IMG/VR virus record: IMGVR_UViG_2537561946_000006
Length of the DNA: 64,000 nucleotides
Source of the DNA: a virus
Taxonomy: Duplodnaviria > Heunggongvirae > Uroviricota > Caudoviricetes
Reading direction: 5' to 3' (one strand)
Made by a program: the position numbers and the translations under genes. A model generated the notes under the pieces. It was not told the DNA's origin. It worked only from the letters and a program-made list of their open reading frames with translations, and ran no database searches. Shown here in pieces: positions 12,856-49,810 of the stretch; the first letter of the stretch is position 1; the number at the start of each line of letters is the position of its first letter.

Positions 12856-13284
12856 TTGCCGGAGGCGCTTATGGCAAAAGTATTTACACAGGAAGAGCGG
12901 GAAAAAATTAAAGGGCAGGTTGTTGAGCTAGTACGCCGGAGTGGGCGCGAGACGTTACGGCAACTGGAAGCCAAGACAGGTGCGACAAGATATCTGATGA
13001 GCGTTCTTGCCAGAGAGCTGGTTGCCAGTGGCGATGTATACAACTCTGGTTACGGGTTATTCCCATCTGAACAGGCTCGTAAGGACTGGCAAAACGCCCG
13101 CAAAAAACTATCGAGGGCAAAACTGAAGAAACCGGTTGTGGTTGATCCTGACCTTATCTGGTCATTACCAGACGGAGAAATACGCCGCTATGACAGGCAA
13201 TTGAACATAATTTGTAGTGAGTGCCGTAACAGTGAAGTGATGCAGCGAGTTTTGATATTTTACACAGGAGTAATGATGGAATAG
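12856..13284 (+). CDS. hypothetical phage protein
   Basis: 142 aa, start abuts previous stop. Confidence 0.5.
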   Translation: MPEALMAKVFTQEEREKIKGQVVELVRRSGRETLRQLEAKTGATRYLMSVLARELVASGDVYNSGYGLFPSEQARKDWQNARKKLSRAKLKKPVVVDPDLIWSLPDGEIRRYDRQLNIICSECRNSEVMQRVLIFYTGVMME

Positions 13285-13635
13285 TGAAAATAACATGAAA
13301 CCTTTGGATTCTGGTGTTTCAGTGGATGGGAAAAGAGCAGATACATAGAAAATGAATAGCAATAATTCACAGTCTGGATGTTGTTTGTATGCTTATAAAA
13401 TGATCCTAGTATGCATTGCCGGAGTTGAATCAGCTCCAATGAAGAAACTGAGAGGAGTATTTAGAAGATAGCTAAATGGATGTAATTATTAGTATCTAAA
13501 AAATAGTATTTTTGAAATGGGTCTAAGAACACAACAATGTACAAATGAGAAGTTATCTTTTAATATGTTCAAAGACCCATTAGGATTGATATCAGTTATG
13601 TTAGCTAGATTGATAAAGTGATTACATATTTTCTG

Positions 13636-14409
13636 TTATATGCTGAAATGAATAATGCTATTCCAGAGTGCAGCAGAGAAAGTCTCCTGATGATTGAGCT
13701 CTGGAAATTGTACAATAGAAAAATTACTGTATTTTTCTGTCAAAATATTTCTCAAAACAGATTCCGCTTTGATGGCTTCAGGATATAAAGATGCGGAGTA
13801 ATCAAGGCTAAGATTTCCGTTAAGCAAGCATATACTTTTAGTGTGCTTTGATTCTGATATATCATCTTTAATTATCTTGATGATTCTTTCATTCTGCCAT
13901 AGAAGTGATGGTGCAGATATATAATAATAGTTAAAGCATGAATTATTTTTTAAGCAATCAAGCACAAAAATAGCACCTAGCGAGTGCCCCCATATACCGA
14001 TTCTGGAACTGTTCGGAGCAATAGTACTAACCCATGGCATGATCTGAGTTAGTAATAATTCTCGGAAAGACTGGCTTCCTCCACCAGTAAAGTAGATCCA
14101 TGCTGGTTTAGAGTTATCAACAATAGCATTTTCACCATCAGGAGTATAATCGTAAGCACGGCGATGAATGCTAAGGTTATTCCAAGATTCATAACCAAGT
14201 GTAACTAACACTGGTGGATTGGGTAGTGCATCAATAACAGGCAGAATATCAGAAATGTAATTGTTGGCACTATTCCCATCAAGTATATAAAGAGTTGCAT
14301 TATTTTTTTTAATGTTTTTTGGAGTAAAAATACATATTTTATATTTGGTGTCATGGTTAATTGAGTTAAATATGCGTGTTTGACAATGAATGTCCATATG
14401 TTTAGTCAT
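13636..14409 (-). CDS. alpha/beta-hydrolase fold protein (esterase-like), AT-rich moron
   Basis: GHSLG nucleophile elbow (GxSxG); 257 aa; strongly AT-rich relative to flanking phage genes; opposite strand. Confidence 0.7.
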   Translation of the reverse strand: MTKHMDIHCQTRIFNSINHDTKYKICIFTPKNIKKNNATLYILDGNSANNYISDILPVIDALPNPPVLVTLGYESWNNLSIHRRAYDYTPDGENAIVDNSKPAWIYFTGGGSQSFRELLLTQIMPWVSTIAPNSSRIGIWGHSLGAIFVLDCLKNNSCFNYYYISAPSLLWQNERIIKIIKDDISESKHTKSICLLNGNLSLDYSASLYPEAIKAESVLRNILTEKYSNFSIVQFPELNHQETFSAALWNSIIHFSI

Positions 14410-14969
14410 GCGTTCTCCCCATGAGCATTAAAGGATGCTTAAGATATGCTATGTCACTGATAAAAAATTTGTTGTGTGTGTTTAGTTATTTTATCTACCT
14501 CCATTATGATTTAAGACTGATATATGTTATCAGCAAAGGTACATCGTTATTATTTTACCTGTCAATACATTTGATATTGATTAGCGTTTACATCGCTTGC
14601 TTAGGAAATTGAAGGCAGGTAACTATCATGTCAATGAACTAACCCACAGTCTAACGTACTTCTTTCCCCAATCACCAACAACCAAATTCCTGTTATCACC
14701 ACTGGGATTTTGGCGCAACTTCATGGTGCAGAGGTAAATAGCATCAAGCAAAATCTCTTTTTCCGTTGTTGTCCTTATGGGACGTCTGTCTTTCTGACCG
14801 ATTTCATATTGGCGAGGTAATGGGAAGTTAAGTAGAATAGCTGCGGGTGCTTGAGGCTATCTGCCTCGGGCATGAACACCAACGGCAGATAGAGAAAAGC
14901 CCCAGTTAACATTACGCGTCCTGCAAGACGCTTAACATTAATCTGAGGCTCAATCTATGAACGGCAAAT

Positions 14970-16043
14970 CTAGGTTAGCCTCTTACGTGCCGAAAGGCAA
15001 GGAGATGTATGGGTCCACCACATATTGCAATTTTTATTCTCTTTTAAAATATATTCCACGGGCGTCATTAGTGCGAGCGCCTTGTGGGGTCTTTTGCTGT
15101 TATACAGCACCAGATATTCCGCCAGCTTCTGGTTAAATAGCGCCAGATCTTCAAAGAGTAAAATCTCATTAAATTCAATAAACTGCTCTCTTAACGTCCG
15201 GTTAAAACGTTCACAGATAGCGTTCATTTTTGGCGTGTAGGGATAGGTCCAGAGGTGTTTGATAGCGGCTTCCTGCAGCGTTTTGTCGAAGTTTCCCAGG
15301 AACTCTTTTCCGTTATCTGTGATTATCTGGCTGATACCGACCGGGAACAACCGGGCTGCGCGGCTGAAGAAGTGATTGACGATATCACTGTTGAGTGACG
15401 GCACAGCCAGCGCCAGCGCGTAATTGCTGCATTCGTCGATCATGGTGATGACATAGCGACGCAGTTCGCCCATTCTGAGCTCAATGGCGTCCATCCCAAT
15501 GAGCTCACCTGTCTTTACCGGGCGGTAGTGCTTTGGCCTGCGGGGTTTGGCAGACCGCTTTTTGACAAGCAGTGCCTTCCCCCGCGATCCCAGACGCACA
15601 GGTATCATCCGCATTTTATCATGTGCGGCAGCGATCATTCTGCCGATGGTGGAAACACTCGGACAGGCCAGATAGCGCTGTTCGCACCAGGGCTTCAGGC
15701 GAACAAAAATCTGCTCTTTACCGAGGTTCGGCAGCTCTGTCCTGAGGCGTCGAATCTCTTTCAGCACATCGGGATGCCAGTGTTTTTTTCGTCGCACCAG
15801 AGGTGCCTTACTGTGCGGGATTAGCCCCTCAGGTCCTTCCTTGTTCAGTAACTGACGCCACCAGTAAAGCGTGCGGCAGGACACGCCAAAGGCTTCAGAA
15901 GCTGCAGAAATACCGTGTTTATCCCAGAAGTGCAGAGCCTTCATTCTCATTGTTGCTATATCAGCCATCACTGAAAGCCTCAACGCATAATCGGCCGTTT
16001 GGTAGTACTTAGGATAGCCAACCATCAGATGCTGCATTTGCAT
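14970..16043 (-). mobile_element. IS transposase gene (DDE integrase-core type, IS481-like); element ends not resolved
   Basis: 357 aa with N-terminal HTH and DDE core ...DNGKEF...; interrupts the nin-region. Confidence 0.75.
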
Positions 16044-16114
16044 AGTGCAATCTCCCCTTACTTATCCGGAGGCAATTGCAATATCTCTGTGAACTTACAC
16101 AGGAGAAGCAGGCT

Positions 16115-16270
16115 ATGAAGCAGCAAAAGGCGATGTTAATCGCCCTGATCGTCATCTGTTTAACCGTCATAGTGACGGCACTGGTAACGAGGAAAGACCT
16201 CTGCGAGGTACGAATCCGAACCGGCCAGACGGAGGTCGCTGTCTTCACAGCTTACGAACCTGAGGAGTAA
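16115..16270 (+). CDS. hok: Hok/Gef-family membrane toxin (HokD/RelF-like)
   Basis: MKQQKAMLIALIVICLTVIVTALVTRKDLCEVRIRTGQTEVAVFTAYEPEE, 51 aa. Confidence 0.85.
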   Translation: MKQQKAMLIALIVICLTVIVTALVTRKDLCEVRIRTGQTEVAVFTAYEPEE

Positions 16271-16437
16271 GAGACCAGGCGGGGGAGAAATCCCTCGCCA
16301 CCGCTGATGTGTCAGGCATCCTCAACGCACCCGCACTTAACCCGCTTCGGCGGGTTTTGTTTTTTCTGGTCGTTCTGGTTTACAATCCATCCGTCAGCCT
16401 GAACAACTGGCACCTGCTGCGCCAGCAGAGAAAACAG

Positions 16438-16716
16438 ATGGCGCACGATACCAAATTTTACAATTCGGATAACTCTGCCGCCCCTGCCAGCAGGCACGGG
16501 CGGCGTTCTCATGCATTCAAATCTGACTGGTATCAGCACGACCCCTGCACCGAAGAACAGGCTGAATGGCTGATTCAGTGTTACCGCAGGCGCGGATACG
16601 AGATTAAGAAAGCCCTCAGCCTCGACTACCGTCACTGGATAATCTCCGTCAGGCTTCCTTACTCCGAACGCCCACCGCGTCCGTCCCGCACATTCCAGCA
16701 ACGGATCTGGAGGTAA
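16438..16716 (+). CDS. hypothetical phage protein
   Basis: 92 aa from ATG at 16438; precedes DUF968-like gene. Confidence 0.4.
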   Translation: MAHDTKFYNSDNSAAPASRHGRRSHAFKSDWYQHDPCTEEQAEWLIQCYRRRGYEIKKALSLDYRHWIISVRLPYSERPPRPSRTFQQRIWR

Positions 16717-17776: not shown

Positions 17777-18136
17777 ATGCGTATAGAGTTTGTTTTGCCT
17801 TACCCGCCGACGGTGAACACCTACTGGCGACGTCGTGGCAGCACATATTTTGTATCAAAAGCCGGTGAGCGTTATCGCCGGGATGTGGCACTTATTGTTC
17901 GCCAGCAGCGGCTGAAATTAAACCTGTCCGGAAGGCTGGCGATAAAGATTATTGCCGAGCCACCGGATAAGCGCCGCCGTGACCTGGACAATATTCTGAA
18001 AGCGCCGCTGGATGCGCTGACGCATGCGGGGGTGCTAATGGACGATGAGCAGTTTGATGAAATCAATATTGTACGTGGTCAGCCAGTATCTGGTGGACGG
18101 CTGGGTGTGAAGATTTACAAAATTGAGAGTGAGTGA
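17777..18136 (+). CDS. rusA: RusA Holliday junction resolvase
   Basis: 119 aa, MRIEFVLPYPPTVNTYW...RRRDLDNILKAPLDAL. Confidence 0.9.
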   Translation: MRIEFVLPYPPTVNTYWRRRGSTYFVSKAGERYRRDVALIVRQQRLKLNLSGRLAIKIIAEPPDKRRRDLDNILKAPLDALTHAGVLMDDEQFDEINIVRGQPVSGGRLGVKIYKIESE

Positions 18137-18675
18137 GCGTAAATATGATATATCCGGAAATTACAGGCAAAAGCGGCGAACATTTACGCCTGAACACGCT
18201 GGAAGCAGTCTGGATCCAGGGGAAATTACGGATGTGGGGGCGGTGGTCGTATATCGGTGGGGGTAAATCCGGAAATATGTTTAACCGGTTACTGGTTTCG
18301 AAAAAGCTGACGAAAACAGCAGTTAATGAGGTTTTACGCAGCATGAAGAAATCCGGGCTGGAAAAACCGGAACTTGAGGCATTTTTTCGGGATATGACCA
18401 GAGGGAAGCAGAAGAGCTGGTTGTCACATTGTACAGACACAGAGGCGTTGATTATTGATCGCGTTATCAGTGAGGTGCTTGGGGAATATCCCGGGCTAAT
18501 CAATATTCTCCGGCAAAGGTACGAAGGACGGGGAATGAGTAAGAGAAAAATGGCAGAATGTTTAAATCGTACTCACCCGGAATGGTGTTTCAGCACATGT
18601 GAGAAACGTATTGCAGGTTGGTTAGCCGTGGCTGAACACATGCTTTATGTACCTATGCACGATTCATTTCGATAA
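18133..18675 (+). CDS. late-gene antiterminator Q-like protein
   Basis: 180 aa directly after rusA and before terminator plus late genes; positional. Confidence 0.6.
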   Translation: MSVNMIYPEITGKSGEHLRLNTLEAVWIQGKLRMWGRWSYIGGGKSGNMFNRLLVSKKLTKTAVNEVLRSMKKSGLEKPELEAFFRDMTRGKQKSWLSHCTDTEALIIDRVISEVLGEYPGLINILRQRYEGRGMSKRKMAECLNRTHPEWCFSTCEKRIAGWLAVAEHMLYVPMHDSFR

Positions 18676-18770
18676 AAAAAGCTTGCTTTTTTACGCAGAA
18701 ACAGCTTGAATTCCTGTAAGCTTCGCAAAGCTGTATCGCGAGGCGAAATGCAAGTTTTTTCGCACAAGGA

Positions 18771-18793
18771 AGCCACCGGAAGGTGGTTTTTTT
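18771..18793 (+). terminator. intrinsic terminator downstream of Q (tR'-like)
   Basis: CCACCGGAAGGTGG stem followed by TTTTTTT. Confidence 0.5.
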
Positions 18794-19264
18794 GTGTCCG
18801 TAATATACAGCAGCGCAATAAATTCGCTGGTGGTTATTAATACCGTTCTTTCAGGTTGCTGGCTTTTTCGACAAGAGTTATTGGTGTGTCACGTTAACCG
18901 GAAAAGGGAAAAAGACATGCTGAAACAGCAGGATATGACAGAAACCGCCAGAGTGGTGTTTAATGAATTAAGCGTTACCGACCCGGCGACAGTCGGGGAG
19001 ATTGCGCAGAATACTTACCTTTCACGCGAACGCTGCCAGTTAATACTGACCCAGCTGGTTATGGCGGGTCTGGCAGACTATCAGTTTGGTTGTTACAGAC
19101 GCCTTCAGTCCTGAAGGCTTTTTTATTTGTGGTAAATGGGCGGCTGGTGGGTGTAAGGGGCACCCACCAGCCATCTGCTCATGCGTTGGGTTCACAAGCA
19201 AACCTCAGGCCCACTGCTTTGCGCAAAAGCAGAATGAGCCTATCAGAGACAGGCTTAATGATCC

Positions 19265-20314
19265 ATGCTTAATACTGTAAAAATATCCAGTTGTGAGTTA
19301 ATCAACGCCGACTGCCTGGAATTTATGCGGTCGTTACCCGAAAATTCTGTTGACCTGATAGTCACGGACCCGCCGTACTTCAAAGTGAAACCCGAGGGCT
19401 GGGATAACCAGTGGGCGGGTGATGAAGATTACCTGAAGTGGCTGGACCAGTGTCTTGCGCAGTTCTGGCGGGTGCTGAAACCTGCCGGAAGTCTTTACCT
19501 GTTCTGTGGCCATCGTCTGGCATCTGACACCGAAATCATGATGCGTGAGCGGTTTAACGTGCTGAACCATATCATCTGGGCAAAGCCGTCCGGACGCTGG
19601 AACGGGTGCAACAAGGAAAGCCTGCGGGCGTATTTCCCCGCCACAGAGCGCATTCTGTTCGCAGAGCATTATCAGGGGCCGTATCGTCCGAAAGATGCCG
19701 GGTATGAGGCGAAGGGTAGGGCACTGAAACAGCATGTGATGGCCCCGCTGATTGCTTACTTTCGTGATGCGCGCGCTGTCCTGGGGATAACGGCAAAACA
19801 GATTGCAGATGCCACAGGAAAGAAAAACATGGTGTCGCACTGGTTCAGTGCCGGTCAGTGGCAGCTGCCGAACGAAAGCGATTATCTGAAATTACAGGCA
19901 CTGTTTGCCCGGGTGGCAGAAGAGAAGCATCAGCGGGGTGAACTGGAAAAGCCCCACCACCAGCTGGTGGATACGTATGCCTCTCTGAACCGACAGTATG
20001 CGGAGCTGCAGAGTGAATATAAGCATCTGCGGCGGTATTTTGGTGTGACGGCGCAGGTGCCGTACACGGATGTGTGGACACATAAACCGGTGCAGTTCTA
20101 TCCCGGGAAACATCCGTGCGAAAAACCGGCAGAAATGCTGCAGCAGATAATCAGCGCAAGCAGTCGTCCGGGTGACCTGGTTGCAGATTTTTTTATGGGC
20201 TCAGGTTCAACGGTAAAAGCGGCACTGGCGCTCGGGCGTCGTGCAATTGGCGTTGAGCTGGAGACTGAACGTTTTGAGCAGACAGTCAGGGAAGTTCAGG
20301 ATTTAATCGTTTGA
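19265..20314 (+). CDS. N6-adenine/N4-cytosine DNA methyltransferase (orphan, phage)
   Basis: IVTDPPYF motif; 349 aa; sits between Q and phage tRNAs. Confidence 0.85.
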   Translation: MLNTVKISSCELINADCLEFMRSLPENSVDLIVTDPPYFKVKPEGWDNQWAGDEDYLKWLDQCLAQFWRVLKPAGSLYLFCGHRLASDTEIMMRERFNVLNHIIWAKPSGRWNGCNKESLRAYFPATERILFAEHYQGPYRPKDAGYEAKGRALKQHVMAPLIAYFRDARAVLGITAKQIADATGKKNMVSHWFSAGQWQLPNESDYLKLQALFARVAEEKHQRGELEKPHHQLVDTYASLNRQYAELQSEYKHLRRYFGVTAQVPYTDVWTHKPVQFYPGKHPCEKPAEMLQQIISASSRPGDLVADFFMGSGSTVKAALALGRRAIGVELETERFEQTVREVQDLIV

Positions 20315-20363
20315 AACGGATGAGATTGCAGAATTAATTTCGCACCATTATTATTCTGGTCCC

Positions 20364-20439
20364 GGCCCTTTAGCTCAGTGGTGAGAGCGAGCGACTCATA
20401 ATCGCCAGGTCGCTGGTTCAAATCCAGCAAGGGCCACCA
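20364..20439 (+). tRNA. tRNA anticodon CAU (Ile2/Met-type, ileZ-like)
   Basis: GGCCCTTTAGCTCAGTGG...ACTCATAATCG...GGTTCAAATCC...AAGGGCCACCA, 76 nt. Confidence 0.9.
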
Positions 20440-20539
20440 TCACATACCGCCATTAGCTTATCAGGAAGAGCAGACGACACCATAACAGGGTTGTTGGTGC
20501 GGGGGCGGGTCCCCGATGGCGGTCCATTATCGGTATTCT

Positions 20540-20616
20540 GCGTTGTTAGCTCAGCCGGACAGAGCAATTGCCTTCTAAGCAATCGGTCAGTGGTTCGACT
20601 CCACTACAACGCGCCA
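20540..20616 (+). tRNA. tRNA-Arg anticodon UCU (argN/argO-like)
   Basis: GCGTTGTTAGCTCAGCC...CCTTCTAAGC...GGTTCGACTCC...ACAACGCGCCA, 77 nt. Confidence 0.9.
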
Positions 20617-20785
20617 CACTTATTTTCCAGGCTCGCTTCGGCGGGCCTTTTTTGTATCTGCGCCACGCCCGGTGCATATCAACCACAGAGCCTTTCGGGG
20701 GTGAGCTTACGGAGTGGTCAGTGTGACTTTCTCTGTGGGCAGATCGCTCCCGGGCGTTGGCTCACCCACCCAAAGGAACGTCACG

Positions 20786-21218
20786 ATGTTTGGTATTTTT
20801 GGTAAAAAAAGCCCGCAGAGCGGCAACGGAAATTAAAAAGTTTGAAAAACGCGATCTGGCACAGGTGGTGATTAACGCCGCATACCTGGTGGCCTGTGCA
20901 GATGGTGAATGTGAGGCTTCCTAGAAAGCGAAGATCGAACAGGTACTGCGTAATCAGCCTGCGCTGTCCGCGTTTACGTCAGAAATTAATGCGATTAGCG
21001 CAACCATTATCGGTCAGCTGGATACGAACTTTAAAATTGGTCGTCGTGCGGCGTTACGTGAGATCGAGGATGTGAAACACGATACGCGTGAAGCGGAAGA
21101 TGTGCTGGATGTGGCGGTGGCCATTGCGGAGGCAGACGGCGAAATTGAGCCGGAAGAGCGCAAGGTGCTGGAAGAGATTGCCGGTGTTCTGGGTCTTCGT
21201 CTGGAGAATCACCTGTGA
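20786..21218 (+). pseudogene. TerB-like domain gene disrupted by frameshift in an A7 run and an in-frame TAG
   Basis: ATG at 20786 stops at 20834; shifting one base in AAAAAAA at 20804-20810 gives MFGIFGKKARRAATEIKKFEKRDLAQVVINAAYLVACADGECEAS-TAG-KAKIEQ...AVAIAEADGEIEPEERKVLEEIAGVLGL. Confidence 0.5.
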
Positions 21219-21382
21219 CGGTAAAACTGCGCCTGACTGTGGCTGCACTCCTGCTGTTTCTGGTGGTGATGGTGGATTTCACCAGCAGAATCATGTCGGT
21301 GCTGGCGGATGGGGTGCTGGTCTGCGGCATTGTGGTATTGCTGTGGCCGGTGATAAAAAGAAACAGCCTGCATAATGCTTGA
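21215..21382 (+). CDS. small hydrophobic protein (GTG start), possible
   Basis: VTVKLRLTVAALLLFLVVMVDFTSRIMSVLADGVLVCGIVVLLWPVIKRNSLHNA, 55 aa. Confidence 0.3.
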   Translation: MTVKLRLTVAALLLFLVVMVDFTSRIMSVLADGVLVCGIVVLLWPVIKRNSLHNA

Positions 21383-21696
21383 TTTTTTTGTTTGCTGTTT
21401 ATTAAAAACACTTCTGCATGGTGAATCCCCCTGTGCGGAGGGGCAATCAGCGAGTAGGTATATGGGATAATCGCGGATTCAGGTGCTGGTACTGAATTCA
21501 CCGGGAGGCACCCGGCACCATGCTTTGCCACAAAAGTGTTATTTCTGTTTTTCTCAAACTATCATCGTTATCCCTTTATTTCCGGCTGCGCATGGCGCGG
21601 CCTTTTTTTTACGACCAGCCACTGGCAGATGGTCATCCTGTGATTTGATTCCGGTTCCGGCTTTTTAACTCTGTTCCTGTACACGGGAGAAATTCG

Positions 21697-26690: not shown

Positions 26691-27005
26691 ATGCTACATG
26701 ATCACGTGGCAGAATGTCTGGAGAAAAAAGGACTGTACCGGAGAGCAGCTGAACGATGGGCAAAAGTGATGGTACAGCTAAGTGATGACCAGAAAAGAAA
26801 AGTGGCGGCACAGAAACGAGCAGAGTGTTTGCGTAAGGCGCGCCGGACTCCGGTTTCACCGGTGAACCTGACCGAAATAAAACAAGCGGTCAACAGACTA
26901 CATTCTGAGTTGGGAATGGGATTTGAAGAGCGGCGGGTATTCCGACGATATAAAGGGACAGGAGAACAGAATACGTCCGGAAACGCGCGGTCAAAAAAAT
27001 GCTAA
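26691..27005 (+). CDS. pch: PerC-family transcriptional activator (Pch-like)
   Basis: MLHDHVAECLEKKGLYRRAAERWAKVMVQLSDDQKR... matches recalled PerC/Pch; long AT-rich upstream region. Confidence 0.8.
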   Translation: MLHDHVAECLEKKGLYRRAAERWAKVMVQLSDDQKRKVAAQKRAECLRKARRTPVSPVNLTEIKQAVNRLHSELGMGFEERRVFRRYKGTGEQNTSGNARSKKC

Positions 27006-27311: not shown

Positions 27312-27518
27312 AATGTTGCCCCGTATTCAGTGTTGCTGATTTGTATTATCTGAAGTTGCTTTTACGCTAATTTGATGCAGATCAATTAATACGATACCTG
27401 CGTAATAATTGATTATTTCTCGTGGTTTGATGGCGTACACACATGTCGTGATAAACCTCATGTAGATGATAATTATTATCATTTTCGTGGGTCCTTTCCG
27501 GCGATCCGACAGGTTACG

Positions 27519-43141: not shown

Positions 43142-43331
43142 AAGCGAAAAAATCCCGCAGTGCTCACGGACAGGAACTGCGGGAGAGTTACGAAGATTGA
43201 GTGTAAGGAATTATTCTTATGTCACGACAAAAACATTAACTCAGAGAGGGAGGATGCGCCGTTCTTTTCAGGGAGAAAGGATTTATCGTCCTGAGGAATA
43301 AAGGTAAGGGGCCCGCCCCTTACCTGACTGA

Positions 43332-43859
43332 TTATTGAATGATGCCGCAGGCCATTCTCGCACCACCACCGCCCAGGGGCTCCGGATGGTCATGATGGTT
43401 ATCACCGCCAGCATGAAGCATGAGAGAACGCCCTTTAATCTCTTTTAATGAGTTCAGTCTCGGGGCCAGGACCGGGTAGTTCGCTTTTCCGTCATGCGTC
43501 ACGAACAGCGCAGGGAGGTCGCCCAGGTGTCCATCCGGAGACCAGGGGCCAAGATGTTTGCCGGTGTTTTTCGGGTCAAAGTGACCGCCAGCCGATAATG
43601 CTGCGACCGGTTTTCCGTCTTTCAGTGCCGGGGCGCAATTTCCTTTTTCGTGCACATGAAAACCATGAATGCCTTCAGACAGAGAGTGAAGGGCTGGTGT
43701 GAACAGCAGACCGTAGGGGGTCTCCTGAATGGTTATTTTTCCAATGCTGACTTCTTTTCCGTCAGCACTGACAAGGTTCATTGGGACTTCCTGTTCTGCT
43801 GCGTATCCGCATGATGCTGCTGTCAGCATGGCAATGGCAGCAATGATTTTACATTTCAT
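43332..43859 (-). CDS. sodC: periplasmic Cu,Zn superoxide dismutase (prophage moron)
   Basis: 175 aa from ATG at 43857-43859; signal peptide [36 protein letters not shown] and [10 protein letters not shown] blocks. Confidence 0.9.
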
Positions 43860-48225: not shown

Positions 48226-49539
48226 ATGGCAGTAAAGATTTCAGGTGTGCTGAAAGACGGCACAGGAAAACCAATACAGAACTGCACCATTCAACTGAAA
48301 GCCAGACGTAACAGCACCACGGTGGTGGTGAACACGGTGGCCTCTGAAAATCCGGATGAGGCAGGGCGTTACAGCATGGACGTCGAGTATGGTCAGTACA
48401 GCGTCACTCTGTTGGTGGAGGGATTCCCTCCATCACATGCCGGGACCATCACCGTGTATGAAGATTCTCAACCGGGGACGCTGAATGATTTTCTCGGTGC
48501 CATGTCGGAGGATGACGTCCGGCCGGAGGCAATGCGTCGTTTTGAACTGATGGTGGAAGAAGCGGCGCGTCACGCAGAGGAGGCGAAGAAGAATGCCGGA
48601 GAGGCGGAGACATCAGCGAGGAATGCCGGCATATCAGCCAGTCAGGCAGAAGAGAGCGCTGCAAATGCTGACACTTCAGCAGGGGATGCATCGGAGTCAG
48701 CCCGGCAGGCGGCAGAAAGTGCAGCCGCTGCAAAGCAGTCAGAGGAGGCGTCCTCGTCCTCGGCCTCTGCGGCCGCTCAAAAAGCCAGTGAGTCATCACA
48801 AAGTGCAGCAGATGCTGAATTGTCAAGAAAGACGGCAGAAAGTGCAGCCGGTAATGCAGCCAGGGATGCAACGACCGCAACAGAAAAAGCCCGGGAGTCA
48901 GCAGAAAGCGCACAGTCAGCGGAACAAAGCAGGATAGCGGCGGAAGAGGCCGTAAACCGAATCCCCACCGTGGTGGGACCTCCCGGGCCAAAGGGGGAAC
49001 AGGGGCCCGCGGGTCCTCAGGGGCCGAAGGGTGATAAGGGAGAGCGCGGTGACACCGGCCCTGTCGGGGCAACCGGCGAACGGGGACCGGCAGGTGATGC
49101 TGGTCCGGCAGGCCCGCAGGGGCCGAAAGGTGACAGGGGAGAGCGGGGAGAGACCGGTCTGACGGGAAATGCAGGTCCACAGGGTCCAAAGGGAGATACC
49201 GGTGCGGCAGGCCCGGCAGGCCCACAGGGACCGAAAGGAGAAACAGGTGCGGCTGGCCCGGTGGGGGCAACCGGACCTCAGGGACCGAAGGGCGACCCGG
49301 GGGAGACACAAATCCGTTTTCGTCTGGGGCCGGCGAGCATTATTGAGACAAACAGCAATGGCTGGTTCCCGGGTACAGATGGTGCGCTCATCACCGGACT
49401 GACCTTTCTTGACCCCAAAGATGCCACACAGGTTCAGGGGCTGTTTCAGCATTTGCAGGTCAGGTTTGGTGACGGGCCGTGGCAGGATGTTAAGGGGCTG
49501 GATGAAGTGGGCAGTGATACAGGCAGAACAGGAGAATGA
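48226..49539 (+). CDS. stf: side tail fibre protein, truncated form with collagen-like Gly-X-Y repeats
   Basis: MAVKISGVLKDGTGKP... lambda Stf N-terminus; GPPGPKGEQGPAGPQGPKGDKGERGDTGP... repeats; lacks the usual C-terminal receptor-binding domain. Confidence 0.8.
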   Translation: MAVKISGVLKDGTGKPIQNCTIQLKARRNSTTVVVNTVASENPDEAGRYSMDVEYGQYSVTLLVEGFPPSHAGTITVYEDSQPGTLNDFLGAMSEDDVRPEAMRRFELMVEEAARHAEEAKKNAGEAETSARNAGISASQAEESAANADTSAGDASESARQAAESAAAAKQSEEASSSSASAAAQKASESSQSAADAELSRKTAESAAGNAARDATTATEKARESAESAQSAEQSRIAAEEAVNRIPTVVGPPGPKGEQGPAGPQGPKGDKGERGDTGPVGATGERGPAGDAGPAGPQGPKGDRGERGETGLTGNAGPQGPKGDTGAAGPAGPQGPKGETGAAGPVGATGPQGPKGDPGETQIRFRLGPASIIETNSNGWFPGTDGALITGLTFLDPKDATQVQGLFQHLQVRFGDGPWQDVKGLDEVGSDTGRTGE

Positions 49540-49540
49540 C

Positions 49541-49810
49541 ATGAACGTACTAAAAAAACTTATGCAGCGTCTGTGCGGGTACGGAAAGCATGATGACCGT
49601 GAACACGGGGAGTTACTTACAGCACAACTGCGTCTGGGGCCGGCAGACATCCTGGAGTCAGATGAGAATGGTATTATTCCGGAGCAGGCCAGGGTAATCA
49701 CGCAGGTGGTGATACTGGATGCGGATAAAAAGCAGATACAGTGTGTGGTAAGACCGCTGCAAATCCTGCGTGCTGACGGGACGTGGGAAAATATTGGCGG
49801 GATGAAGTAA
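49541..49810 (+). CDS. small protein resembling the stf C-terminal module
   Basis: 89 aa; LTAQLRLGPADILESDENGIIPE echoes QIRFRLGPASIIETNSNGWFPG at the stf C-terminus. Confidence 0.4.
   Translation: MNVLKKLMQRLCGYGKHDDREHGELLTAQLRLGPADILESDENGIIPEQARVITQVVILDADKKQIQCVVRPLQILRADGTWENIGGMK

Follow-up and report, generated by a model that had tools for sequence, protein, structure and literature searches.

The window analysed here, a stretch of 64,000 nucleotides held in IMG/VR as the Caudoviricetes record IMGVR_UViG_2537561946_000006, is a lambdoid, Rac-like prophage of Escherichia coli. Between its replication genes and its nin genes lies an AT-rich cassette of about 1.5 kb which carries one reverse-oriented gene, and the protein of 257 amino acids encoded by this gene belongs, by homology and by modelled fold, to the siderophore esterases of the IroE/PfeE/BesA family, as a divergent member. 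Enzymes of this class are well known, and the protein is a new member of the family, leaderless and phage-borne. The cassette is probably a lysogenic-conversion moron of the lambdoid prophages of enterohaemorrhagic E. coli (EHEC) type, with an IroE-type cytoplasmic esterase for catecholate trilactones as its product, and this account is held with moderate confidence. An earlier note on this DNA, made from the letters alone, had recognized an alpha/beta hydrolase but could name no family for it; sequence and structure searches, however, place it clearly among the IroE-family siderophore esterases. This article describes the esterase and its cassette, weighs what the enzyme may do and compares it with known systems.

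Family assignment of the esterase

The sole long open reading frame (ORF) in the trough of guanine + cytosine (GC) content is read from the minus strand and has the GHSLG nucleophile elbow at residues 141-145, as the earlier note had seen. Its product is identical to WP_000160654.1, called "alpha/beta hydrolase" in the Prokaryotic Genome Annotation Pipeline (PGAP) annotation of a 100% DNA match, and the same gene in prophage Sp4 of O157:H7 strain Sakai is ECs1077, a "hypothetical protein" (matched by length and synteny). When PDB sequences were searched with phmmer, the protein matched IroE (2gzr) with E=5e-26 over query residues 8-253, and further matches were BES (E=9e-13), PfeE (E=1.5e-11) and fungal siderophore esterases. 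In addition, an AlphaFold (AF2) model built from 90 sequences is confident, with a predicted local distance difference test (pLDDT) score of 92.5 and a predicted template-modelling (pTM) score of 0.92, and when PDB was searched with this model by Foldseek, ranks 1-30 were all taken by siderophore esterases (IroE, PfeE, EstA/EstB, BES and Shewanella IroE-like) with template-modelling (TM) scores of 0.72-0.81, while Fes, esterase D and generic hydrolases ranked below them. The NCBIfam search gave no match, but NCBIfam is without a model even for authentic IroE, and in PHROGs the protein matches only the unnamed family phrog_8493.

IroE uses a Ser189-His287 dyad (PMC10515146). Asp90, Arg130, Ser189 and His287 of IroE align with D44, R84, S143 and H240 of the prophage protein, respectively, and each of these four key positions is kept by 131-136 of the 136 relatives: D44 and R84 do not vary (136/136), and the column of His240 is His in 131. 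The equivalents of Asp90 and Arg130 are the family-invariant Asp in LDGN and the Arg in RxYDYTP, both of which are present, and D87 and the YTP motif of the family are also kept. Asp90 and Arg130 reportedly matter for IroE activity, a result attributed to Larsen et al. in 2006. The family alignment has no additional conserved acidic residue, in keeping with a Ser-His dyad. Furthermore, one relative of 31% identity (P0020) sits in an entE/entB/entA catecholate cluster together with two TonB-dependent receptors and a FecCD/ABC importer, and this context fits the known role of the siderophore-esterase family.

Absence of a leader and isolation of the lineage

The N-terminus of the esterase has no hydrophobic segment, that is, neither a signal peptide nor a membrane anchor, so the signal-peptide check proposed in the earlier note gave a negative answer for this protein. 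The possibility that the ORF starts further upstream and includes a signal peptide was considered too, and is ruled out by an in-frame stop 5 codons ahead of the ATG. In the model the first beta-strand occupies residues 8-15, so that the globular fold begins at residue 8. Among the 136 relatives, 98 begin with a hydrophobic extension (median length 41.5 amino acids) and about 16 are leaderless, some of the latter being truncated gene calls.

An exhaustive phmmer search of 1.84 billion representative proteins gave 998 matches, of which only fragments of the protein's own cluster fell below 1e-30. The next relatives, 31-33% identical, are leader-bearing proteins of Pantoea and Duffyella (Erwiniaceae). 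No relative above 33% identity was found in this set outside E. coli prophages, and no donor with a matching low GC content was found. As far as these sequences go, the esterase lineage is isolated.

The AT-rich cassette and its limits

In 400-bp windows the GC content drops to 0.31-0.37 at 13200-14800, and the flanks on either side are at 0.49-0.56. The stretch 13285-14789 has a GC content of 0.344 against 0.499 for the whole window, and this is within the lowest 0.3% of all 1505-bp windows. Empty sites were sought with a query of concatenated flanks, that is, prophages in which the DUF977 gene runs straight into the hok/sok locus, and BL21(DE3) has such a site: homology stops at 13167 and restarts at 14790. 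The foreign cassette is therefore about 1.5 kb long and ends at about 14789, because homology to the empty site resumes at the next position. The sequence beyond this point belongs to the hok/sok leader, which is 92.6% identical to the hokD leader of BL21, and Rfam RF01794 (sok) scores 102 bits at 14845-15011. Accordingly, the interval 13285-14969 given in the earlier note contains a real AT-rich cassette, but its final 180 bp or so are hok/sok.

Other parts of that description stand. The markedly AT-rich interruption of phage genes of normal GC content was confirmed by the values above, and so was the place between replication and nin genes, with an O-like replication gene, a DnaC-like ATPase gene, DUF1627 and DUF977 on the plus strand upstream and hokD, DUF968, rusA and Q downstream. 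The idea of an acquired, AT-rich, reverse-oriented moron encoding a serine alpha/beta hydrolase is likewise supported. Extra small genes in the flanks were also considered, namely the ORFs 14421-14612 (+), 13260-13439 (-) and 13165-13362 (-), and were rejected since 1-nt indels break them in other alleles.

Distribution, neighbours and selection

The gene is present in 471 of 5426 complete E. coli genomes (about 9%), mainly O157:H7, O145 and O103 EHEC, and nearly all of these genomes have a single copy; 458 of the carriers have it at identities of at least 99% and 13 at 90-95%. At least 80% of the gene is matched in 467 of the 471 genomes, and the coding sequence is intact in every listed annotation row. 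The order DUF977-esterase-hokD was found in all 21 loci with flanks, even where the DUF977 and DUF1627 genes are only 69-71% and 64-67% identical, respectively. Ten distinct alleles were recovered in 22 copies, 21 of which are intact; the broken one (L029) is frameshifted within a run of A. D44, R84, S143 and H240 are retained wherever the copy is intact, and the GC content is 0.344-0.360 in every allele. The ratio of nonsynonymous to synonymous substitution (dN/dS) is 0.16-0.28 at synonymous divergences (dS) of up to 0.32, and judged from these alleles the esterase gene is under purifying selection.

The gene is confined to prophages, which answers the question of its distribution raised in the earlier note and makes it no well-known housekeeping esterase of the chromosome. 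None of the isolated phages among 50,697 phage records carries it; these records contain only iroE-like matches of about 29% identity, two from Acinetobacter (annotated iroE) and two unannotated or called hypothetical protein, and the viral structure library contains no IroE-like entry. No paper was found on ECs1076-1078, WP_000160654, NP_309104 or phrog_8493. For Z1341, an "unknown protein of CP-933M", a 2.5-fold rise on contact with epithelial cells has been reported, alongside exbB and chuU (PMC2654852). The EDL933 Z number of the esterase (CP-933M, about 13600-16700 of the window) is bracketed to about Z1338-Z1342, with Z1341 as one of the candidates.

Candidate promoter and terminator

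By inspection, the 250 bp 5' of the ATG have far fewer variable columns than the coding sequence, in which the alleles of 90-92% identity show 9-10% divergence. This conserved region, with the candidate elements given in Table 1, may act as the promoter of the esterase gene. About 60 nt past the stop codon a long hairpin is followed by a T-run; the RNA fold of 13490-13640 (-) has -26.7 kcal/mol with z = -3.2, the stem arms are kept in all alleles and an indel lies in the loop. The cassette appears, on these grounds, to have the anatomy of a moron: an apparent promoter and terminator of its own, an orientation opposed to the early-right operon, and presence or absence among related prophages.

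Where the 5' region of the esterase gene meets the hok/sok leader, the alleles differ by large indels (alignment A2). PGAP annotates an "incomplete hypothetical protein" of 28 codons, ITNNQIPVITTGILAQLHGAEVNSIKQN, in this variable junction at 14671-14754 (+).

Proposed function and alternative explanations

In the reading preferred here, the protein would stay in the cytoplasm of the lysogen, where Ser143, activated by His240, would attack the ester bonds of a catecholate trilactone siderophore, either enterobactin (host-made or imported) or a foreign siderophore related to it. Linear dihydroxybenzoylserine oligomers would result, and the esterase would add to or modify the work of the host Fes. 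That the substrate is a siderophore is suggested by the family relationships and by the modelled structure. Several observations nevertheless weigh against this reading. E. coli already has the cytoplasmic Fes, so the benefit of an extra esterase is not obvious, and in the 21 loci there are no siderophore uptake or biosynthesis genes beside the esterase. When a 19-bp Fur consensus was scanned over the cassette and the 5' region and compared with 500 shuffles, no significant Fur box was found, the best match (14/19 at 14573-14591) being equalled by 21 of the 500 shuffles, and this match was therefore not taken as evidence of iron regulation. Moreover, the identity to any characterised esterase is 27-29% or less, and Pfam PF00756, of which the IroE-like esterases form a subgroup, gives 17 bits (E=0.005), under its gathering cut-off of 22, so the substrate specificity may have shifted.

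The orphan position in a prophage with no iron-related neighbours, the Fur result and the low Pfam score speak at the same time for the main rival, according to which an IroE-like fold and its catalysis were recruited to a non-siderophore substrate, for example another cytoplasmic ester or depsipeptide, a phage or host metabolite, or phage exclusion. The isolation of the lineage, with nearest relatives of at most 33% identity among the representatives searched, points in the same direction, and so does the general knowledge that the replication-nin interval often hosts accessory genes. However, the residues that are invariant in siderophore esterases beyond the Ser/His dyad (D44, R84, D87 and the YTP motif) are all retained, the top 30 structural matches are exclusively siderophore esterases, and the PADLOC defence models gave no match to the esterase at E<=1. 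Such a recruitment is thus regarded as rather unlikely, although it has to be taken seriously. An exported protein is far less probable, such as an effector of the type III secretion system (T3SS) or one leaving by another leaderless route, which would act outside the bacterial cytoplasm. It is true that the same prophage bears the T3SS effector genes nleB2, nleC, nleH and nleF, and that, apart from the cassette, only the effector locus (about 49400-55800) has a comparably low GC content in the window. But the esterase lies in the early region, away from that locus beyond the tail fibre genes, its N-terminus belongs to the globular fold from residue 8, all its homologues are bacterial siderophore esterases, and no literature was found on the gene. 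The "unrecognised effector" entertained in the earlier note thus finds no support, since the catalytic fold begins, with its first strand, right at the N-terminus of the protein and the conserved residues of the IroE family are kept.

Lastly, it is scarcely credible that the gene is a decaying, non-functional remnant in a cryptic prophage. One of the 22 copies is frameshifted, as described above, and some carrier prophages are defective, for instance that of 14EC007, whose integrase gene has a frameshift. The idea is largely refuted by the signature of selection, that is, by dN/dS of 0.16-0.28 at dS of up to 0.32, together with the intactness of the remaining 21 copies with all key residues, the intact coding sequence in every listed row, the match of at least 80% of the gene in nearly all carriers and the high conservation of the 5' region.

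Significance

A further step from the preferred reading, and a more tentative one, is that lysogenic conversion by a temperate phage brings in a gene for siderophore processing, so that a cytoplasmic IroE-type esterase would reshape the enterobactin pool or let EHEC use foreign trilactones; this is possible but doubtful. If it is true, an effect on iron acquisition or on peroxide tolerance in the gut would be expected, and iron release, an altered pool of secreted catechols and stress protection are proposed as candidate benefits to the lysogen. In Salmonella the linear enterobactin trimer from IroE and Fes protects against peroxide (PMC7403778). In addition, the esterase would be the first phage-borne siderophore esterase, within the searches of phage genomes and viral structures described above, and siderophore processing would join sodC, lom, Stx and the T3SS effectors as lambdoid-prophage traits of EHEC. 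The published statement that an IroE homologue is lacking in E. coli devoid of the iro locus (PMC7403778) would likewise need to be qualified. About 9% of the complete E. coli genomes carry a gene annotated only as "hypothetical" or "alpha/beta hydrolase", and naming it provides a testable hypothesis.

Prophage setting and neighbouring elements

The features of the cassette and of its surroundings are collected in Table 1.

Table 1. Features in and around the esterase cassette (positions in the window)
Feature	Position	Strand	Basis
Esterase gene, 257 aa, leaderless IroE-family serine esterase	13636..14409	-	ORF, phmmer, AF2 model, Foldseek
Nucleophile elbow codons G141-H-S143-L-G145 (Ser143 = IroE Ser189)	13975..13989	-	alignments
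His240 codon (= IroE His287), motif FPELNHQ	13690..13692	-	alignments A1, A4
AT-rich cassette (moron) between DUF977 gene and hok/sok locus	13285..14789	no strand	GC content and BL21(DE3) empty site
Shine-Dalgarno-like GGGGAGAA, spacer CGC (3 nt) to ATG at 14409	14413..14420	-	sequence; invariant in all aligned alleles
Conserved 5' region, candidate promoter elements	14410..14660	-	alignment A2, consensus scan
TTGACA hexamers, two perfect	14560-14565, 14629-14634	-	consensus scan
CATAAT hexamer	14503-14508	-	consensus scan
Invariant palindrome TGATAACATATATCA	14518-14532	-	sequence; resembles one 7-1-7 unit only
Candidate terminator, long hairpin GGGTCTTTGAACA...TGTTCTTAGACCC then T-run	13495..13578	-	RNA fold
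DUF977 gene, constant left neighbour, outside cassette	12856..13284	+	ORF list and neighbour comparison
hok/sok leader, constant right neighbour, outside cassette but within the interval of the earlier note	14790..15005	+	Rfam and BL21 comparison
IS481-family element, independent insertion in hokD Shine-Dalgarno region	15006..16100	-	target duplication; absence elsewhere
IS481-family transposase	14970-16043	-	listed with the IS481-family element

The insertion sequence (IS) next to the hok/sok leader has a target duplication of 6 bp, AGGAGA at 15000-15005 and 16101-16106, which is the Shine-Dalgarno sequence of hokD. It is missing from many genomes with an identical esterase gene (also from locus L002) and is present in 1 of 19 IMG/VR loci. 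Because it carries a target duplication of its own and most carriers of the esterase lack it, the IS is a later, independent event that is uninformative on the acquisition of the esterase, and as the vehicle of the cassette it was rejected, its duplication lying inside the hokD leader. Adjacency to an IS, which the earlier note had taken as a sign of cargo, is therefore a property of this window, the element being absent from the other 18 of the 19 loci. The IS moves the hokD coding region (16115-16270) 1.1 kb away from its promoter and the sok/mok leader, and this separation has probably put the hok/sok type I toxin-antitoxin locus out of action in this strain. IS-disrupted hok loci are known in K-12.

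The annotation of 23922-54197 was transferred from the 99.4% identical record NZ_CP024131.1. By this annotation the prophage carries a sodC moron, reverse-oriented among the tail genes at about 43330-43857 (-), and lom, as well as a gene for a PerC-family regulator at about 26691-27005. Past the tail fibre genes the AT-rich effector locus, at about 49985-53140 (+), consists of nleB2, a partial nleC, nleH (frameshifted in the reference) and nleF. The prophage of 14EC007 is otherwise 99% identical to the window but departs from it at 18123-21684, in the Q/late-regulatory region, which indicates module exchange there. The best match of the whole window to the Fur consensus is 17/19, GAAAATGATAATAATTATC, at 27468-27486, which is intergenic before the terminase small-subunit gene (27714) and in the region around cos; this match could be no more than an AT-rich palindrome.

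Comparison with known systems

The prophage protein shares with IroE of the iroBCDEN locus (2GZR/2GZS) homology over the full length at 27-29% identity, the single-domain alpha/beta-hydrolase fold (TM 0.76-0.82), the Ser-His dyad and the equivalents of Asp90 and Arg130. However, IroE has a hydrophobic leader of about 40 residues and lies beside iroD and iroN in the iro cluster, whereas the prophage protein is leaderless and its gene is an orphan with a GC content of 0.34. The leader and the iro context are defining features of IroE proper, and the prophage protein has neither of them. IroE is periplasmic and acts on iron-free siderophores to give the linear trimer, while Fes is cytoplasmic and degrades the iron-loaded forms stepwise (PMC7403778).

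BesA (BES), the bacillibactin esterase of Bacillus (2QM0), has an IroE-like fold (TM 0.78-0.79) and about 20% identity to the prophage protein. It is leaderless and cytoplasmic, and its gene, on a Gram-positive chromosome, belongs to the iron-starvation regulon. By its proposed mode of action BesA is the closest analogue, if the mechanism set out above holds, whereas in sequence the prophage protein is closest to the periplasmic IroE-like proteins of enterobacteria, its nearest relatives being the leader-bearing Erwiniaceae proteins and not BesA-like ones. PfeE of Pseudomonas aeruginosa (TM 0.76-0.81) and Cee of Campylobacter belong to the same family and fold. Both are periplasmic, and PfeE is linked to a TonB-dependent receptor and is induced by enterobactin via PfeS/PfeR (PMC8001512); nothing of this context is present with the prophage gene.

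Fes/IroD share with the prophage protein the predicted compartment and the proposed class of substrate, and Fes (3C87, TM 0.66-0.68) is a distant structural relative, although its sequence similarity is undetectable by phmmer. Fes uses a Ser-His-Glu triad and bears an additional lid domain at its N-terminus (PMC10515146). Finally, like the lambdoid morons sodC, lom and bor, the esterase gene is an accessory gene of deviant composition that appears to be transcribed independently, placed between conserved modules and present or absent among related prophages; unlike them, it has a siderophore-esterase homologue as its cargo.

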